This document shows positions 23,288-45,760 of a DNA stretch of 64,000 nt, piece by piece. The notes beneath the pieces are model-generated. The model did not search any database. It saw only the letters and a program-made list of their open reading frames with translations, and had not been told where the DNA came from. Position 1 is the first letter of the stretch, and each line of letters opens with the position of its first letter. Position numbers and translations under genes: made by a program. Source of the stretch: Escherichia coli (GTDB lineage Bacteria > Pseudomonadota > Gammaproteobacteria > Enterobacterales > Enterobacteriaceae); NCBI RefSeq assembly GCF_965641715.1, contig NZ_OZ282455.1; one strand, 5' to 3'.

Positions 23288-24496
23288 TCAGAATTCGTTG
23301 TCTGTAGCAGGTGTGCGGGGCAGGATGTCGTCGGTGAGGGACCAGTTGGTCAGGATGCGGCGTTTCCGGTCGCGATCTGGTTGTGGTTCATCCCAGATAA
23401 GACCGAGACTGAGCATATCCCGCCGTAAGCCTTCCACCGCTTCATCAACACAGGGTTCAGGGCAGGGAAGACCAAAACGCATGGCTTCGGCCTCTGCACG
23501 TGCAACGGCCACCACGCCAGCGCCTTCAATAAATCCTTTCGTGGTATTGGCGCGGTGTAATGCATAAAACAGCGTCCTGTCCACGCCTTTCAGCCAAATC
23601 CAGTTGGGTGGCGTAAGCCGCAGGTCATGTGCATACAGCCAGACCAGCCCACTGCGGACGTAGCGATGTTGTTTCAGCCATTGCTGTGCTCCGTTGCTTT
23701 TAATCACTCTCTGGAAAGCTGATTTGGCCAGTGAATAAACAGGGGTACAGAATTTCCCACTGTCCCGTTTGCTTTTAATTCTGCATGAGAGGTTCAGTGT
23801 ATCCATGAGCTTTAATGCTGCCTTACGATCATCCAGGAAATACTGAAGACCAAATATGGCAAAGAGCGCTTTTTCATGTGGTGCCATGTCTTTCCAGGAC
23901 GTTAAAGGTTTACCCAACTGGGCCATGAAACATCGTCTTGCAGCTGCAACATCGAGCTGCATATTGGTGATGAGAGTATGCTGCTCGACAAATGCTTCCG
24001 GGGTGAGAGCAACCCGCCGTTCAGGTCGTTTGCCACCATGAAAGAGTTTTTCCGGATCACCATCTGCCAGTACAGGGGCGATAGCAGGGGACAACGAAGC
24101 AAAGATGTGTGGCAGTCGGGTAATATCTACTGGTCTGCGGGTGAAACGGCTTTGTCCCGGATGTTGATACCATTCCCACAAACACCAGAGTGTCACAGGT
24201 AAGAGGTACATCCACAGAATACCTATGGTCTGCTCCATGACGTTAACCCACTGGCTATAGCTTATGTTGGCGGCGTTGTTACCGGTCATGGCAAGCAGGT
24301 TGTATCGTGGTGCTGCATAGTTATGAAATGGCCCCCAGTCGACCAGTCCCCATAAGGTATGAAGAATCAGGCAGCTGGCGTAAACCACTTCCGGCAAGAA
24401 TAACCATATGACGAATAGCAGCAGGATAAGAAGGACACCAACAGCGCCCCATATCTGCATAGGATCTTCTGCGACAGGCTGTCGATTGTAAGACAT
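23288..24496 (-). CDS. trbA: conjugal transfer membrane protein TrbA
   Basis: 402 aa; N-terminal hydrophobic segments; synteny. Confidence 0.75.
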   Translation of the reverse strand: MSYNRQPVAEDPMQIWGAVGVLLILLLFVIWLFLPEVVYASCLILHTLWGLVDWGPFHNYAAPRYNLLAMTGNNAANISYSQWVNVMEQTIGILWMYLLPVTLWCLWEWYQHPGQSRFTRRPVDITRLPHIFASLSPAIAPVLADGDPEKLFHGGKRPERRVALTPEAFVEQHTLITNMQLDVAAARRCFMAQLGKPLTSWKDMAPHEKALFAIFGLQYFLDDRKAALKLMDTLNLSCRIKSKRDSGKFCTPVYSLAKSAFQRVIKSNGAQQWLKQHRYVRSGLVWLYAHDLRLTPPNWIWLKGVDRTLFYALHRANTTKGFIEGAGVVAVARAEAEAMRFGLPCPEPCVDEAVEGLRRDMLSLGLIWDEPQPDRDRKRRILTNWSLTDDILPRTPATDNEF

Positions 24497-40990: not shown

Positions 40991-41334
40991 AGGTTGTAGT
41001 CCTTCCAGGGATCAATATTCCCCGGCAGCTTTTCATTCACCTTGTCCACGACCGCGTCGCAGACCTGGTTTTCCAGCTGCGACAGAATGTCGTCAAGGCT
41101 GGGGAACTGGGGGAGGTTTATGCTGATTTTTTTGATTCGTGACAGACAGGACTGCAGGGATGAGGAAACATCGTTTTCACGTTGTGACCATGCATCCGCA
41201 GCTGCACGTGCTCGCTCATATCCTGTATTACTACCGGCCTGTGCCGCGCTACCCGCACGACAGGTTGCAGCACTTGCCGTGGATGAAATCAGGATAAGGC
41301 CGAGCACGGCAACCAGAGACTTATGCATGTTCAT
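40987..41334 (-). CDS. traL: conjugal transfer protein TraL
   Basis: 115 aa with signal peptide; synteny. Confidence 0.7.
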   Translation of the reverse strand: MNMHKSLVAVLGLILISSTASAATCRAGSAAQAGSNTGYERARAAADAWSQRENDVSSSLQSCLSRIKKISINLPQFPSLDDILSQLENQVCDAVVDKVNEKLPGNIDPWKDYNL

Positions 41335-41351
41335 ATGGCTTCCTTACCGGC

Positions 41352-44300
41352 TCATCGGCCGGGGCTGTGGGAGAGATCCTGATGCAGAGTTTTTTCCTGC
41401 CTGTCCTCCGGCTTTTGGCTGTTGGACCACTGCTGCCATGACTGCTCGAAGCCCAGGTTCCGGTACAACGCATCAGGTTGTTTTTCCGGCGTGTAGACAG
41501 CAGCAAAAAGCGGTTCTTCCCGGGTTTTCAGATGAAACTGCATAAGCTCCGGTGCGGGGCGATTCGTGCTGTCAGCATCGTGGTTTACCGCTTCACCATA
41601 ACCTGCAAAGCGTAAACCTTTGTCGGTCAGCGCATTGATAACCAGCTGACTGTTGTCGGCTGATGGGGTGGCCAGTGCCGGATACAATGTGCCGTTCAGC
41701 CGGACCACACCCTGCAGATGTTCATCGGCACTCTGGACAAGTAGCAGGTTGAGTTCACGCGTATCCTTATCCACTGATCCCAGAACAGGTGTCAGCTTGT
41801 CAGGGGCTGCGCTGGTTATTTCTGTTACCTGATTTGCGTTCTGTGGCGCGGAGACCGGATGTCGGTCTTCACCGATAAACAGATGTGAGCCGACGTTTTC
41901 TGGCATACGTAACGTTTTCATCTCTTCGGGCCACCCCTGGCTGATTTGCGCAGCCACTTTCATAAAGGTTTCGACCGGAATCGCCTGAATACGCTGACCT
42001 TTATCCGGATTATCATGTGATACCGAGATCCCGTTGGTAACTGACTCCATGGACCACTTATTCCGGAAACGTGCTTTTTGCTCTCCCGGGAGGATGAATT
42101 GTTCGCGGTTCTGAAGTGTCAGTGTCACCACGTCACCTTTCTGATGGTTTTTGACCAGACTTTCCAGTTGCTCCCCCCAGTAGAGTTTGCTGCCACTGCG
42201 GTTTTTAAGCTCAACAAAGAAACTCTCTCCTTTGCCGGGTGCATATTCAGCACGACCAAAATTGTGCAGTACGGCAGTCACGCTCTCTCCCGGGCGAAGT
42301 TTTCCTGGTGGTTCTTCACCTTGTGCCGCATCTGCCGTTTTGCCAGGTTCAGCCGGTGATGATGCAGGGACGGTGCTGACGGTTGATGCTTCAGGGGCTA
42401 TTGGGGACGCCGGGGATTGTGTGGCTTCTTTTTCCTGAACAGGGTCTGGGACTGCTGGTTGTTCAGGGGTATTCCGGTTAAGTTCCGGTGTTGGCTTATG
42501 GGTGACAACAGCATCCTTACTGACAGCCATTTCCTTGCGTAATTTTTCTAGTTCAGCCCGTTGATCTGGCAATTTCATCCGGACATCGATGTTGTGCTCG
42601 ATAATCAACTGCATTGCTTTTTGCTTAAAGGCATCACTGCCCGTCAGCTCTATGACGCCCCCATAAAATTTGGTGGCCACAGCAAGTGCGGCCAGAACGC
42701 TGCGATCGTCATTGCTGGCACCGTTGACCATTTCCAGCCGGTTTACCCGGTCAATGAAGGCAGGTTTGCCATCCAGTTTGTACAGGACGGTTCTGTCTGC
42801 TCGTTTTTCCCAGTCGAGCTCTTTAAGAATTTCGTCCATGTTGAGCGATATCGGTGCATCAGAACGTTCCGGGGCGTAGACAATACTGTCAGGTATCGGT
42901 GGAGTCGTCGTGGTTTCCGCTGAGGGCGTGGGATCACTGTTCTCATGTGCCTGTGAATCCGTTTTTTTACGCGTAAAAAAGCCACGCGCTTTGTCGAGAA
43001 ACGATGAAGTATTATCAGAAGGTGATGTGCTCTGAACAGGTTGCTGTGGAGTGGGTTCATCCCGGACAGCCGGTTCTGCAGTATCTGTTGTGGCCTGAAG
43101 TTCTGACTCATCTGCCTGAACGTGGTCTGTGTCCGGTTGCGACGGCATATCACTGTTTTCCTGCAGATGCTCAGGATTTTCATTGTTCATCAGCTCCTGA
43201 TATGCGCTGTAGTTTTCGTATTCTTCGGGGCCATCTGACTCAGGAAGGAACGGCTCTGGCTGAAGGGGAATGTCTTCAGTTACATGGTTGACCGCCTCTT
43301 CCCGGGGAGTATCCGGGGATATTCCGGTGCTTTGTTTGTCATCAGGCTCCGTCATCACGGTCATTTCCTCTTTGACTGCATCAGGGGAAGGTGATGGCTC
43401 GGCTGATTCATTCATGGTTTCAGATGAGGGACTGTCTTCAGGGGATGCGGGGGCGGCAGCAGGGGCCGGTATTTCAGGTGAAGTGCCGGATTCCTGTTGT
43501 GACTCGTTTTTTTCCGGTTGTGACAGTTCGGCTTCAAATTCACGCCAGTCTTTATCTGTGGCCACCGAGACAACTTTTTCCGGAGGTTCCGCCGGATGAG
43601 CGGGTTCATCAGGGGCAGATGCCGTTGTACTTTCCGGGGACGCCGGTGATTCTGCAGGGGAGTCCTGAACTACAGAGCTTTCCGTTTGCGCCTGAACGTT
43701 ATCAGCGTGCCGCTCATCTTTGCCGTTATTTTCAGTGGCGTGACTGGTAAATGACTGTGTTTCATCAGCAATGTTACTGCTGGAAGCAGCTGGTTGTTCC
43801 TGCTGCGTGGCGGACGGCAGAGAAGGTCCCTGGTCATGGCTGTGCCCTGTATCGGGTGATGTTTCAGGATATTCTGTCGGAGTCATGGTTTTTTCCTCAG
43901 TGTGGACCGGTGTAAAAACGAGGTTGCCGATCACCAGTGCCTCGCGGATTTCCGGGGTGTTACTGTTGGGGGTGGAAACCCCGATGTGTTCTAACTGGGC
44001 GTTGATGACATGCTGAAAAGCGGCCCGTCCCCGGCTTGCGTCCAGGTCATTGAAATCGGTCAGCCCCTGCGCTTTTTCGGCATCGGTGAACGCAGGAAAG
44101 ATGACCGTTCCTCCTGTCAGTTCTGCGGCTTTTGTTGCACTGACGATACCTTTGTTAACCCGGATTGCATGATCGTTGTCGGCACAGAAGATAAAGGGGC
44201 TTTGCGTCCACTTTTGCCGGGCATTTTCGGCAACGGCAATCATGTTGCCTCCATCCACCGTCATCAGTACCGGAAGGCCCGTGGCTTCGTGCAGGGAGGC

Positions 44301-45155
44301 CGCAGTGGCATAGCCCTCGGCAAACAGTACCGGCTGACCGTTGCGCGGTGTGCCCAGCGCAAACCAGTTACCGGTTTTCTCTGAATCTTTCAGGATGCGG
44401 GCATCCTTCCCCCCGGTGACCGGAATACGCTGGTAAGAGCGTATCGCGCCGTTACGGTTACTGAAGGGAATAACCAGTTCATTTTTGTTGTTTACCCGCA
44501 CCCCCGGTGCAGCCTGAATGCCTTTCCGGGTCAGGTATTCATGTGCTGTGGCCTGCGGCCATTTGTTGACATAGCGGCGGGCATACGCGGCCTGTCGGTT
44601 GTACTGTGCTTTCAGTTCCCGCTCCGCGTCCTCCCTGCGTTGCATTGAATGCGCTTTCAGGTGGAGTCTTGCGCGGGGATCTGTCTGTTCTCCGCCGGAG
44701 AAGGTCCAGGTGATCGGCGAATCATCCGCGCTGCGATAATCCCTGTACCAGCCGGCAGGTCTGCCGTCCAGGAATCCGCGATATGCGCCACTTTTTTGTC
44801 CTTTTTTGTCATCGGCGGTCGGGACACGGTGGATTTTCCCGTCCATGACCGGCAGTTCTTTCAGAACCAGTCCGGCATTCTCCAGAACCTGGGCAAACTC
44901 GGTGACCGGATCACTGCCGTTCATGGAGACGTCCTGTGGCCGGGGCAGCCAGCGGTCCAGCCTGGACAGGTCCGCCCCCGGGCGGGCGAACCAGAGTTTG
45001 TGCTCCTTGTCCCAGATGACGGGCGTGTGCCCGTTCATCGGGGGATGTGCTTTTTTGAGATCTTCTATTTCATCTGCAGGCACGGCAAGCCAGGTGCGGT
45101 AGCGGGATACAGACGGCATGAGTGCTTCTCCTGAAAAAAGACGGAAAAAAACCAC
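41352..45155 (-). CDS. sogL: Sog DNA primase (SogL; SogS expected from in-frame internal start)
   Basis: 1267 aa; N-terminal primase region with EGYATAASL motif; about 350-aa acidic Pro/Ser/Glu/Thr-rich low-complexity linker; size matches IncI1 sog. Confidence 0.9.
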   Translation of the reverse strand: MVFFRLFSGEALMPSVSRYRTWLAVPADEIEDLKKAHPPMNGHTPVIWDKEHKLWFARPGADLSRLDRWLPRPQDVSMNGSDPVTEFAQVLENAGLVLKELPVMDGKIHRVPTADDKKGQKSGAYRGFLDGRPAGWYRDYRSADDSPITWTFSGGEQTDPRARLHLKAHSMQRREDAERELKAQYNRQAAYARRYVNKWPQATAHEYLTRKGIQAAPGVRVNNKNELVIPFSNRNGAIRSYQRIPVTGGKDARILKDSEKTGNWFALGTPRNGQPVLFAEGYATAASLHEATGLPVLMTVDGGNMIAVAENARQKWTQSPFIFCADNDHAIRVNKGIVSATKAAELTGGTVIFPAFTDAEKAQGLTDFNDLDASRGRAAFQHVINAQLEHIGVSTPNSNTPEIREALVIGNLVFTPVHTEEKTMTPTEYPETSPDTGHSHDQGPSLPSATQQEQPAASSSNIADETQSFTSHATENNGKDERHADNVQAQTESSVVQDSPAESPASPESTTASAPDEPAHPAEPPEKVVSVATDKDWREFEAELSQPEKNESQQESGTSPEIPAPAAAPASPEDSPSSETMNESAEPSPSPDAVKEEMTVMTEPDDKQSTGISPDTPREEAVNHVTEDIPLQPEPFLPESDGPEEYENYSAYQELMNNENPEHLQENSDMPSQPDTDHVQADESELQATTDTAEPAVRDEPTPQQPVQSTSPSDNTSSFLDKARGFFTRKKTDSQAHENSDPTPSAETTTTPPIPDSIVYAPERSDAPISLNMDEILKELDWEKRADRTVLYKLDGKPAFIDRVNRLEMVNGASNDDRSVLAALAVATKFYGGVIELTGSDAFKQKAMQLIIEHNIDVRMKLPDQRAELEKLRKEMAVSKDAVVTHKPTPELNRNTPEQPAVPDPVQEKEATQSPASPIAPEASTVSTVPASSPAEPGKTADAAQGEEPPGKLRPGESVTAVLHNFGRAEYAPGKGESFFVELKNRSGSKLYWGEQLESLVKNHQKGDVVTLTLQNREQFILPGEQKARFRNKWSMESVTNGISVSHDNPDKGQRIQAIPVETFMKVAAQISQGWPEEMKTLRMPENVGSHLFIGEDRHPVSAPQNANQVTEITSAAPDKLTPVLGSVDKDTRELNLLLVQSADEHLQGVVRLNGTLYPALATPSADNSQLVINALTDKGLRFAGYGEAVNHDADSTNRPAPELMQFHLKTREEPLFAAVYTPEKQPDALYRNLGFEQSWQQWSNSQKPEDRQEKTLHQDLSHSPGR

Positions 45156-45208
45156 CGCCGGAAGCCGGGGGTGGCTGGGGGGATAGAAAATCGGGGGAGA
45201 AATGTTTG

Positions 45209-45760
45209 TCAGGGTTTCCAGTCTGTACCCTTATTCCAGCGATCCTGCCAGTGTTCAAGATATTGTGCGGCTACATCCGGCATATTCTTGAGCACAACGA
45301 CATTCTCTGAATTCTTGCGTGCAGCAGCACGAGAGAAGTTATAGGAGCCAGTTTCAACCGTGTTTCCGTCAACAATGATGACTTTGTCGTGATGGATGGG
45401 GAAGGCATCTACAGTCCGGAGAGGAATGTCCAGCAGGTTGATATATTTCATCGCTTCCTGACTTGCCCGGTTCGTATTCCCCTTGTCATCAACAACAATA
45501 CGGACGTCCACTCCGCGTTTTTTCGCTTTTGCCAGCGCATGCATTACATCCGGGTCGGTGAAGGAATATGCCATCATCCTGATGGAGCTTTCCGCACTGT
45601 TGATTGTGTCAAGCACCAGAGCGGATGCGCTTCCTTCAGGAGAAAAGCCGACCTTCACGGATGGCGTGTCGATCATTGCAAACGATGGTGTCGTGAACAG
45701 TAACGGGCATGCCAGTAGCGATACCCGGAGCAGAGTAACGATAGTTTTTTTACCTGACAT
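45209..45760 (-). CDS. nuc: Nuc endonuclease (phospholipase D/HKD family), secreted
   Basis: Inside track ORF 45209..46120; ATG at 45760 after GGAG gives signal peptide MSGKKTIVTLLRVSLLACPLLFTTPSFA; HKD motif HDKVIIVDG. Confidence 0.8.
   Translation of the reverse strand: MSGKKTIVTLLRVSLLACPLLFTTPSFAMIDTPSVKVGFSPEGSASALVLDTINSAESSIRMMAYSFTDPDVMHALAKAKKRGVDVRIVVDDKGNTNRASQEAMKYINLLDIPLRTVDAFPIHHDKVIIVDGNTVETGSYNFSRAAARKNSENVVVLKNMPDVAAQYLEHWQDRWNKGTDWKP

Follow-up and report, generated by a model that had tools for sequence, protein, structure and literature searches.

Sog is a plasmid-encoded primase that is described in the older literature as migrating anomalously slowly in SDS-PAGE. Sog of ColIb-P9 is known to have primase activity and to be delivered into recipient cells (PMC8406263, PMC7213743), and the protein has been proposed to coat ssDNA (PMC6112013). 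Its export is given as DNA-independent and as involving hundreds of copies in the passage of PMC8406263 that cites Wilkins and Thomas 2000. Two forms have been reported, SogL of 1255 aa and SogS of 844 aa (PMC6112013), and transposon insertions have shown transfer to depend on the SogS region (PMC4288162). TraC of RP4 (IncP) is another plasmid Toprim primase that passes into the recipient during conjugation (PMC7213743, PMC5512222).

On homology and gene order, the gene at 41352–45155 of the window (the whole stretch of DNA that was analysed, 64 kb) is assigned as sog of an IncI1 conjugative plasmid. The flagged ORF lies on the minus strand, which the first-pass annotation had left unstated, and runs from a GTG, the first possible start, to the stop codon, giving the 1267 aa named in that annotation. 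ColIb-P9 Sog and SogL from this locus share 98 % amino acid identity, gap-free over the full 1255 aa, and the gene is located between nuc/traK and traL/traM of the tra operon, with an ORF order equal to that of the annotated pUR5084 and ColIb-P9 loci. Together with a Toprim domain and an EGYATA motif, this upholds the earlier identification as the Sog primase. Comparison at the DNA level detected 100 % identity to sog of this locus in CP114352.1 and coverage of at least 80 % of sog in 1318 plasmids. The position between traK (IcmT) and traL/traM (DotI) was also observed in 10 homologous loci.

The most likely start of SogL is the ATG at 45119, which gives a CDS at 41352..45119 (minus strand; 1255 aa plus stop) with the same start and length as the annotated sog of ColIb-P9 and pUR5084. 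A Shine–Dalgarno sequence, AGGAG, was recognized from the sequence at 45128..45132, 8 nt 5′ of this ATG. SogL numbering, used below, equals ORF numbering minus 12. The first-pass annotation considered the internal start of SogS impossible to place from sequence alone, but several lines of evidence put it at M412 (ATG, 43884..43886, minus strand). The difference between the published lengths (1255−844=411; PMC6112013, and Table 2 of PMC4288162) leads to this residue. The alignment with ColIb-P9 sog that had been recommended for the purpose shares the Met column at 412, which is invariant in seven aligned relatives. A GAGGA Shine–Dalgarno sequence (43894..43898, minus strand) lies 7 nt 5′ of the ATG and is shared by ColIb-P9, the IncK2/Z homologue and a natural SogS-only gene (L013/L014, found on at least four contigs). 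This natural gene starts at the same point, with Shine–Dalgarno sequence, start codon and acidic N-terminal arm and no primase. The SogS CDS would therefore occupy 41352..43886 (minus strand; 844 aa plus stop), in frame within sogL (PMC6112013). No sigma-70-like promoter was found within sog, which makes a single mRNA plausible. One sog frame, with an internal ATG at 43886 and its own Shine–Dalgarno sequence, is thus predicted to encode two proteins, SogL and SogS.

SogL consists of five segments rather than three, all encoded on the minus strand: primase, acidic arm, LPD7, Pro-rich linker and beta-barrel C-terminal domain. Pfam matches were obtained for a DUF5710 domain at SogL 8–59 (44943..45098; PF18974, E=1.3e-8) and for a Toprim_3 primase domain at SogL 266–365 (44025..44324; PF13362, E=7.5e-5), the latter at 23.5 bits, slightly under the Pfam gathering score of 27.2. 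The EGYATA motif (SogL 268–273; 44301–44318) is inside the Toprim_3 region, and its residues E268, G269, Y270, T272 and A273 are near-invariant among 33 family members. Identity in the Toprim_3 region ranged from 36 to 99 % across 10 plasmid homologues, drawn from IncB/O, IncK2/Z and IncL/M and from plasmids of Salmonella, Enterobacter, Klebsiella, Serratia and Pseudomonas. The LPD7 region (SogL 751–875; 42495..42869; PF18821, E=3.7e-14, with the match itself at 42534–42797) is predicted to be folded, with pLDDT of 79–92 in the AlphaFold2 model, and here forms part of a multidomain protein encoded beside T4SS genes, as expected of a polyvalent protein. The C-terminal domain (SogL 939–1255; 41355..42305) is modelled as two small beta-barrels, with many ssDNA-binding OB-fold proteins among their best structural matches, followed by a conserved tail ending in SHSPGR (...KPEDRQEKTLHQDLSHSPGR). 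Between LPD7 and the C-terminal domain is a second predicted disordered linker (SogL 876–938; 42306..42494), a Pro/Ala/Glu-rich segment (P 22 %, A 16 %, E 13 %; pLDDT ~31–44) that is shorter than the arm and absent from the first-pass annotation.

The acidic arm, examined by composition, AlphaFold2 and charge-hydropathy, extends over SogL 412–750 (ORF residues 424–762; 42870..43886, minus strand). Its 339 aa include 71 D+E and 15 K+R (net charge −56, pI 4.05), and account for 56 of SogL's 64 net negative charges. The composition is 14 % P, 13 % E, 13 % S, 10 % T and 8 % D, with P/S/T/E amounting to 49 % and hydrophobic residues to 14 %. Sliding 40-aa windows had net charges of −5 to −11, 40–62 % P/S/T/E and 5–28 % (mostly 5–20 %) hydrophobic residues over ORF residues ~401–780, while the regions flanking the arm were near neutral with 22–40 % hydrophobic residues. 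This agrees with the first-pass description of residues 430–780 as acidic and of low complexity. The most acidic 339-aa window had a net charge of −59, and the corresponding value in 5000 shuffled versions of the protein averaged −32.3 (sd 4.5) and never fell below −54; chance is excluded as the source of the acidity. Among all ORFs of at least 200 aa in the window, the top 200-aa stretch of sog was at −43 and that of the next ORF at −24. Intrinsic disorder of the arm, which the first-pass annotation had assumed, is predicted by both approaches applied, with no ordered fold: AlphaFold2 gave pLDDT values of ~30–38 over SogL 412–739, with two short predicted helices only in the arm, compared with 75–92 for LPD7 and the C-terminal domain in the same run and alignment, and the charge-hydropathy value was +0.29 past the order/disorder boundary, on the disordered side.

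An artefact of the DNA, namely a foreign insertion, a repeat expansion or a gene overlapping in another frame or strand, is an extremely improbable source of these properties. ORFs of 109–161 aa in alternative frames do overlap the arm region on both strands, but none of six overlapping ORFs had a Pfam match above threshold and no promoter-like sites were found. A search for tandem repeats within the arm detected none, its G+C content (0.49–0.55) is like that of the flanks, and 1300 plasmids share the open, conserved sog frame.

Three semi-conserved motifs, again on the minus strand, are located within the arm. Motif A, DKDWREFEAEL (SogL 522–532; 43524..43556), coincides with a short helix predicted by AlphaFold2 at SogS 113–121, and its pattern, D-W-x-x-F-x-x-E-[LM], recurs in the IncK2/Z and IncB/O homologues, P0121 and P0002. 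Motif B, EEYENYSAYQELM (SogL 632–644; 43188..43226), is an acidic-aromatic predicted helix (SogS 221–234, pLDDT ~60) whose core, Y-x-x-hydrophobic, was present in 15 of 30 family linkers compared with 5.1 expected from shuffles. Motif C, SFLDKARGFFTRKK (SogL 706–719; 42963..43004), is the sole basic patch of the arm, with a net charge of ~+1 in windows 701–740, and is conserved in P0002, Salmonella CP053415, the IncB/O homologue, P0121 and P0123. These motifs suggest binding of a specific partner, which a purely physical role would leave unexplained.

Acidity was found well beyond the IncI1 plasmids. The linkers of the 10 plasmid homologues were 150–421 aa in length, with net charges of −12 to −66 in all of them. 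For representatives of 50 %-identity clusters, the inter-domain region was 115–727 aa with a net charge of −11 to −65 in every case (29 of 29), and the rest of each protein was near neutral. Overall, ~40 diverged Sog-family proteins from I-type (Dot/Icm-like) transfer systems have an acidic low-complexity stretch directly upstream of LPD7, among them proteins that lack a primase domain and the natural SogS-only gene, and the second linker was mildly acidic or neutral in distant family members. A plasmid-specific expansion, an outcome that the first-pass annotation had allowed for, does not account for the arm because every full-length homologue examined has an acidic segment. Among IncI1-type plasmids, linker DNA was present at 95 % identity or above in 1327 of 1340, with a span of 1017 or 1014 bp in those sampled. 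Taken across these alignments, the family conserves negative charge and low hydrophobicity just upstream of LPD7, with an arm that varies in sequence and length.

Such variation bears on the view, which we consider unlikely, that the arm is a largely neutral spacer marking an evolutionary seam between exchanged modules, with a charge of no specific function, tolerated because any soluble disordered sequence suffices. The arm cannot be aligned between the IncI1 and IncB/O homologues and contains many indels, in addition to the family-wide range in length. A recombination breakpoint is located at the start of the arm, just 3′ of M412, in the IncK2/Z homologue, and natural deletions have removed ~90 aa including motif B (P0002) or the entire arm plus the Toprim domain (P0001). 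Ratios of non-synonymous to synonymous differing codons, based on small counts, were 10:7 and 12:12 for the linker compared with 18:43 for the primase domain. However, a neutral spacer has no need of acidity, and the net charge is negative in every one of the ~40 diverged members while the second linker drifts to neutral. Other observations against a neutral spacer are the fixed length of the arm in the sampled IncI1 plasmids, the recurrence of motifs A, B and C, and the retention of the arm in genes lacking any primase that would need spacing.

The acidic segment begins at the SogS start codon and therefore serves both as the N-terminal third to 40 % of SogS and, in SogL, as the tether of the primase. 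Its first-pass description as a linker between primase and C-terminus is accurate for SogL, where it separates the two, but is incomplete in that the same segment is the N-terminus of SogS and is retained without the primase. Five family members lacking a primase domain still have the acidic stretch before LPD7, and the breakpoint just past M412 in the IncK2/Z homologue likewise speaks for the arm as part of the SogS module. A disordered and P/E/S/T-rich segment in this position might alternatively be a protease-sensitive, PEST-like hinge, at which host proteases split the primase from SogS or clear Sog after delivery. Such a hinge would suit the processing of polyvalent proteins into separate units; that processing has been proposed to follow delivery (PMC5512222), and Sog has LPD7, which Pfam terms large-polyvalent-protein-associated. 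We nevertheless regard a hinge as very doubtful: a Pfam search found no peptidase domain in Sog, the separated SogS module is already made by internal initiation so that cleavage is unnecessary, and the acidity in particular is not accounted for.

The reading that we favour, with about even confidence, is that the arm serves the SogS module as a flexible, polyanionic leash and as an electrostatic shield. The arm would act through its physical properties. A part in secretion or in coating of ssDNA, suggested in the first-pass annotation, is likewise hypothetical. As a flexible leash, with a contour length of ~120 nm at 0.36 nm per residue, it could leave the primase free to move along the incoming strand with the C-terminal module still attached, and it may keep the abundant exported Sog soluble and extended. 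It is probably also a shield or ssDNA mimic, limiting how far the C-terminal module binds nucleic acids too early, in the donor; the acidic tails of E. coli SSB, T7 gp2.5 and T4 gp32 are a proposed parallel for this role. The main export determinants would lie outside the arm, in the LPD7 and C-terminal modules. MOBQ4 relaxases, which have no acidic arm, also carry a Sog-like C-terminal domain, and LPD7-like sequence is present at relaxase C-termini. The transposon data cannot split the arm from the downstream domains because the insertions truncate those domains. Against a leash and shield, the natural variants P0002 and P0001 and one Pantoea homologue annotated without an arm suggest that a large part of it may be dispensable.

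The main competing proposal casts the arm as an acidic signal for multivalent recruitment. Its Glu/Asp stretches, perhaps along with motifs A and B, would bind TrbA at its basic cytoplasmic domain and so drive the DNA-independent, many-copy export described above. This would resemble Legionella DotM and its Glu-rich E-block tails: in both systems an acidic, Glu-rich unstructured sequence is found in a type IVB substrate and a DotM homologue is encoded (PMC5802825). The gene for the hypothesized basic partner, trbA, is at 23288..24496 (minus strand). Its product contains a DotM_C domain (Pfam, E=1.6e-49) that is basic (pI 9.8; 27 K+R compared with 15 D+E), and matches DotM structures (PDB 6exe, E=2e-8). 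Arg patches of DotM bind acidic Glu-rich peptides, in a modelled interaction that includes a Phe adjoining Glu (PMC5802825), and the equivalent of DotM R314 is kept in TrbA, as VDRT. The role of TrbA and of conjugative type IVB coupling complexes is described as unknown in the literature (PMC5802825, PMC12365149), and the conservation of acidity across the I-type transfer family is consistent with a ligand. Nonetheless, this proposal is improbable in our judgement, and TrbA–arm binding is itself hypothetical. Most of the peptide-binding Arg residues of DotM are not conserved in TrbA, with no Arg aligned to R196/R197 or R217. E-block signals are short and form the C-terminal tail of Legionella effectors, whereas the acidic segment of Sog, at SogL 412–750, is 339 aa long and internal in SogL or N-terminal in SogS. 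In addition, the MOBQ4 relaxases have the Sog-like C-terminal domain and lack the arm, yet are efficiently mobilized by R64 (PMC6856555).

For a leash and shield, the tails of SSB, gp2.5 and gp32 are comparable in that a polyanionic disordered segment is attached to a predicted, possibly OB-like, beta-barrel module. TraC of RP4 is, like Sog, a Toprim primase delivered to the recipient, and is also made as two in-frame products, but it is exported by a type IVA system. Its domain order differs as well, with Toprim at the C-terminus, combined with DUF1738/ArdC-N and a metallopeptidase (PMC7213743, PMC5512222). The MOBQ4 relaxases of small enterobacterial plasmids share 42–47 % identity with Sog 947–1235 over their C-terminal ~280 aa, a similarity noted before along with the finding that R64 is their best helper plasmid (PMC6856555), but they have an N-terminal relaxase instead of a primase and neither the acidic arm nor LPD7. 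Closer counterparts are Pri of the IncM plasmid pCTX-M3 and its IncL counterpart on pOXA-48-type plasmids, which belong to an I-type system, occupy the same operon position and match Sog in domain order (primase, acidic linker, LPD7, C-terminal domain). In pCTX-M3, an internal in-frame start close to where the primase meets the linker likewise gives two proteins, of 1070 and 689 aa (PMC6112013). The folded domains of these Pri proteins are only 22–36 % identical to those of Sog, and their linker is Ala/Glu/Pro-rich with tandem 15-aa repeats resembling VASAPAA(A/D)EPEE, whereas the IncI1 arm is non-repetitive. Sog of ColIb-P9/R64 is the same gene, with the same nuc-sog-traL order, Toprim/EGYATA primase and internal start giving an 844-aa SogS (PMC6112013). 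The differences from ColIb-P9 sog are allelic only and patchy, with 10 % nucleotide divergence in the LPD7 segment compared with 0.3–1.9 % in the flanks. This locus offers a useful refinement of an already known protein rather than a new kind of system.

The minus strand of the window holds a single ORF of 1267 aa at 41352-45155 with GTG as its first codon; the ORF placed here by the first-pass annotation, which omitted the strand, is therefore real. The DNA of the interval is 100% identical to E. coli plasmid CP114352.1 and matched 1839 plasmid records; most of these are conjugative MOBP/MPF_I plasmids from Escherichia, Salmonella and Shigella. Gene order around sog (traH-traI-traJ-traK-nuc-sog-traL-traM-traN-traO) equals that of the annotated pUR5084 and ColIb-P9 loci. 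The product aligned without gaps to ColIb-P9 Sog, with 98% identity, from the ATG at 45119, which has AGGAG 8 nt upstream. Because the start of this alignment and the AGGAG both place initiation at ATG 45119, SogL comprises 1255 aa, the published length (PMC6112013), and the GTG at 45155 merely marks the earliest point at which the open frame could begin. Pfam domains were DUF5710 (ORF residues 20-71), Toprim_3 (ORF residues 278-377, slightly under the Pfam cut-off) and LPD7 (ORF residues 787-874), with the EGYATA primase signature at SogL 268-273 (SogL numbering is ORF numbering minus 12). Divergence between sog alleles was patchy. Relative to ColIb-P9, the LPD7 segment (window 42495-42869) differed at 10% of nucleotides and its flanks at 0.3-1.9%, while relative to pUR5084 the divergent patches were the primase part (5%) and the second linker (7%). 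This pattern suggests segmental recombination among IncI1 alleles.

SogS, of 844 aa, has been described as the product of initiation within the sog frame (PMC6112013), and the same lengths of 1255 and 844 aa appear in the pESBL annotation, which was copied from R64 (PMC4288162, Table 2). These published lengths put the SogS start at SogL M412 (ATG 43886-43884), which has GAGGA 7 nt upstream. In seven aligned relatives, whose primase domains were down to 60% identical to that of SogL, M412 was invariant and lay within a conserved context of F-T-P-V-x-x-E-E-x-x-M. Most of ten remoter homologues also had an in-frame ATG close to where the primase meets the linker, in many cases together with a Shine-Dalgarno-like sequence, and products of 1070 aa and 689 aa have been proposed for Pri of pCTX-M3 (PMC6112013). 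A natural gene encoding SogS alone (loci L013 and L014) starts at the SogS Met. The start had initially been considered impossible to place from sequence alone; the GAGGA, the conserved Met, the 844-aa length and the natural gene together place it at M412, and both the identity of the gene as sog and the existence of two starts are strongly supported. An internal promoter for SogS was rejected, as a weak consensus scan of 41200-45400 found no sigma-70-like site where 2.0 were expected, a result compatible with one mRNA carrying two starts. With SogS initiated at M412, the acidic segment that follows, here termed the arm, begins at residue 1 of SogS.

The limits of the arm (SogL 412-750; window 42870-43886, minus strand) were set by domain boundaries. 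Its 339 aa include 71 D+E vs 15 K+R, giving a net charge of -56 and a pI of 4.05, and are rich in P (14%), E (13%), S (13%) and T (10%). The arm provides most of the net negative charge of SogL (56 of 64). In 40-residue windows across about ORF residue 401-780, net charge was -5 to -11, Pro/Ser/Thr/Glu made up 40-62% and hydrophobicity was low. The most acidic 339-aa window of SogL had a charge of -59, which was equalled in none of 5000 SogL shuffles (minimum -54), and no other ORF of the 64-kb window approached the acidity of the arm. The acidic low-complexity stretch reported at roughly residues 430-780 is thus borne out by both window composition and shuffling. The calculated masses of SogL and SogS are 138.0 and 92.4 kDa, and Sog products reportedly ran at about 210 and 160 kDa in the literature of the 1980s; such migration would fit an acidic disordered segment common to both proteins.

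An AlphaFold2 model of SogS, with 16 family sequences in the input alignment, gave a pLDDT of about 30-38 for the arm (SogL 412-739) and 31-44 for the second linker (SogL 869-938), as against 79-92 for LPD7 (SogL 745-870) and 75-92 for the C-terminal domain (SogL 946-1241). The low values for the arm are informative because the folded parts were modelled confidently with the same shallow alignment. Secondary structure in the arm was limited to two short helices, at SogL 524-532 (DWREFEAEL) and SogL 632-645 (EEYENYSAYQELM, pLDDT about 60). By charge and hydropathy, the three folded regions plotted on the ordered side and both the arm and the second linker on the disordered side. Predicted disorder of the arm, the check proposed originally, is strongly supported. 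A role for this segment as a protease-sensitive hinge was judged highly improbable. Three possible origins or alternative contents were rejected: repeat expansion, as Tandem Repeats Finder detected no repeats in the arm; foreign insertion, as its G+C of 0.49-0.55 equals that of the flanks; and overlapping genes, as six ORFs of 109-161 aa in other frames or on the opposite strand had no Pfam match above threshold.

Acidity of the arm was conserved across the family to a greater extent than its sequence. Identity to the IncB/O homologue (1353 aa) was 76% for the primase domain, 68% for LPD7 and 64% for the C-terminal domain; the linker of that homologue, 421 aa long, could not be aligned and had many indels, yet was acidic (net charge -63). 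Ten homologues were compared; their sources were IncK2/Z plasmids, IncL/M plasmids and plasmids found in Salmonella, Enterobacter, Klebsiella, Serratia and Pseudomonas. All ten were located between traK/icmT and traL/traM of I-type transfer operons and all had linkers of 150-421 aa with a net charge of -12 to -66 (D+E 16-22%, K+R 1.5-10.6%). In the IncL/M pOXA-48-type homologue (L011:2784-3480) the linker consisted of tandem 15-aa repeats, VASAPAA(A/D)EPEE(T/V)AP-like, each opening with an in-frame GTG. A search of 1.84 billion cluster representatives yielded 29 further full-length members (50%-identity clusters), all with an inter-domain region of 115-727 aa and net charge -11 to -65, the rest of each protein being near neutral (-3.3 to +1.0 per 100 aa). 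In some of the longest of these regions additional folded domains were inserted, for instance an HTH domain in one member (P0151). SogL has a second low-complexity segment between LPD7 and the C-terminal domain (SogL 876-938; P 22%, A 16%, E 13%), but in distant members this second linker was near neutral, which shows the acidity to be a specific feature of the first segment. Within IncI1, linker DNA was present at >=95% identity in 1327 of 1340 plasmids, with a length of 1017 or 1014 bp in the rows sampled; that the arm is a sequence artefact is scarcely credible. Negative charge is thus a strongly supported family-wide property, and comparison of the ten homologues, the 29 cluster members and the IncI1 plasmids rejected a plasmid-specific expansion, the outcome that the first-pass annotation had named as counting against its proposal.

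Natural variants were informative about which part of Sog the arm accompanies. In a plasmid lineage found on at least four contigs (L013:3889-6274 and L014; Logan SRR10058834, ERR10754172), nuc and the primase domain are deleted, and traK is followed by a remnant of about 100 bp from the 3' end of the primase region, which carries the SogS Shine-Dalgarno sequence (GTGAGGAAAAAACATG). The resulting SogS-only gene encodes 757 aa, begins MTSTEHPETSPD and has an acidic N-terminal arm of 275 aa (net charge -23) from which about 90 aa, including motif B, are absent. Five other proteins without a primase domain (P0135, P0155, P0161, P0027 and P0031) had an acidic low-complexity stretch directly before LPD7 (net -14 to -54), and among primase-less members only one annotated Pantoea protein had no such stretch. 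On the E. albertii IncK2/Z plasmid pEA26_3 (L008:1281-4988), Sog was about 95% identical to IncI1 over residues 1 to about 430 and only 20-40% identical beyond, indicating a recombination breakpoint just after M412. A 688-aa Sog (P0001; L015:3001-5067, Logan SRR14854327) has an in-frame deletion joining about SogL 168 to about 736, with loss of Toprim, the SogS start and the entire arm in an otherwise intact traH-traO operon. There is strong support for the arm travelling with the SogS (LPD7) module and not with the primase. Its initial description as a linker between the primase and the C-terminal region holds for SogL, but is incomplete, as the arm is also the N-terminal arm of SogS and is kept where the primase is absent. 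A neutral spacer would leave unexplained both this persistence and the acidity in every family member, and was considered unlikely.

The modules flanking the arm resemble parts of relaxases. The Sog C-terminal domain (SogL about 947-1235, window 41355-42200) was 42-47% identical to the C-termini of MOBQ4 relaxases (P0061-P0120), a similarity already published together with the finding that R64 is the most efficient helper of MOBQ4 plasmids (PMC6856555). One 127-bp patch of this domain was 86.7% identical at the DNA level to a MOBQ4 relaxase gene (NZ_CP117634.1), which suggests a recent exchange. LPD7 (window 42534-42797) shows weak similarity to the C-terminal end of MOBP relaxases: it matched the NCBIfam TraI/MobA(P) relaxase model over the final 64 positions of the model (E = 3e-4, well short of the cut-off), and in tblastn it matched a Xanthomonas relaxase. 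This hints at a module common to Sog and relaxases. As both folded SogS modules recur on other conjugative substrates, these comparisons point to the folded modules, rather than the arm, as the probable site of export determinants. The arm as main translocation signal was downgraded, a Sog-like C-terminal domain being present on arm-less MOBQ4 relaxases (PMC6856555). The extreme C-terminus (SogL 1250-1255, window 41355-41372) is SHSPGR in close relatives and P-x-R-P-G-like in distant ones, with P1253 nearly invariant in 33 sequences, and is a candidate C-terminal export signal. Transposon sequencing of pESBL found the SogS region to be fully required for transfer, and classed 26% of SogL as non-essential (PMC4288162). 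The latter fits a dispensable primase part (411 of 1255 residues), but these data cannot single out the arm because insertions in it truncate the downstream domains.

How the arm acts is a matter of inference, and we put the chance that its physical properties are what counts, over the other readings, at about even. As a leash and shield, flexible and polyanionic, it would keep the abundant Sog protein soluble and extended and let the primase reach out from a C-terminal module bound to DNA. In SSB-type proteins acidic tails restrain nucleic-acid binding, and by analogy the arm would probably hold back premature binding. Recurring motifs may lie within it: motif A, D-W-x-x-F-x-x-E-[LM], in the IncI1, IncK2/Z and IncB/O homologues and in P0121 and P0002; motif B, a Tyr-rich, acidic helix of amphipathic character (for example EEYENYSAYQELM), with variants at shifting positions in most homologues; and motif C, SF[LM]DKARGFF[TS]R[KR], the sole basic patch of the arm. 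A Y-x-x-hydrophobic core occurred in 15 of 30 linkers vs 5.1 expected from shuffles, an enrichment that is indicative only, the pattern having been written after seeing instances. On the main alternative reading, the arm would serve as a multivalent acidic ligand of TrbA (window 23288-24496, minus strand). TrbA is homologous to DotM (DotM_C, E = 1.6e-49), and its cytoplasmic domain is basic (pI 9.8). Legionella DotM recruits effectors via Glu-rich tails (PMC5802825), although the known Glu-rich signals are C-terminal, and of the DotM Arg residues only the R314 equivalent is kept in TrbA (VDRT), R196/R197 and R217 not being aligned with Arg. MOBQ4 relaxases also do without an arm. TrbA binding is doubtful, about on a par with the neutral spacer. 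Somewhat less probable again is the fuller proposal, in which the arm has a function throughout the family as part of exported SogS and is no spacer, and in which its acidic stretches and the acidic-aromatic motifs A and B would be multivalent ligands of the basic cytoplasmic domain of TrbA within the IncI coupling complex. The role of TrbA and of the coupling complexes of conjugative type IVB systems has been described as unknown (PMC5802825, PMC12365149); if true, the proposal would give these complexes their first defined protein-recruitment role and would explain the DNA-free export of hundreds of Sog molecules.

Among the major carriers of ESBL and carbapenemase genes are IncI1 plasmids and the related IncB/O/K/Z and IncL/M plasmids, and Sog is among the few non-relaxase proteins known as exports of a conjugation machine. 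The arm may bear on recruitment of protein substrates in type IVB conjugation systems and on the role of the DotM-like TrbA, and its start at M412, its charge conserved with the LPD7 module and its three recurring motifs are clear targets for deletion and charge-swap work. The sog gene, both products and their sequence were already known, and an acidic arm would be no surprise to a specialist, although literature searches found no paper that discusses the arm itself. So far, the finding refines the description of a protein that has been public in sequence for a long time, with modest additions: the exact SogS start, the linker as N-terminal arm of SogS, family-wide conservation of charge, natural SogS-only and arm-less variants, and a testable link to TrbA. 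Compared with known systems, the IncI1 arm is non-repetitive, in contrast to the repetitive linker of the IncL/M pOXA-48-type homologue, and it has no counterpart in the MOBQ4 relaxases of about 4-kb plasmids, in which the Sog-like C-terminal domain is present.
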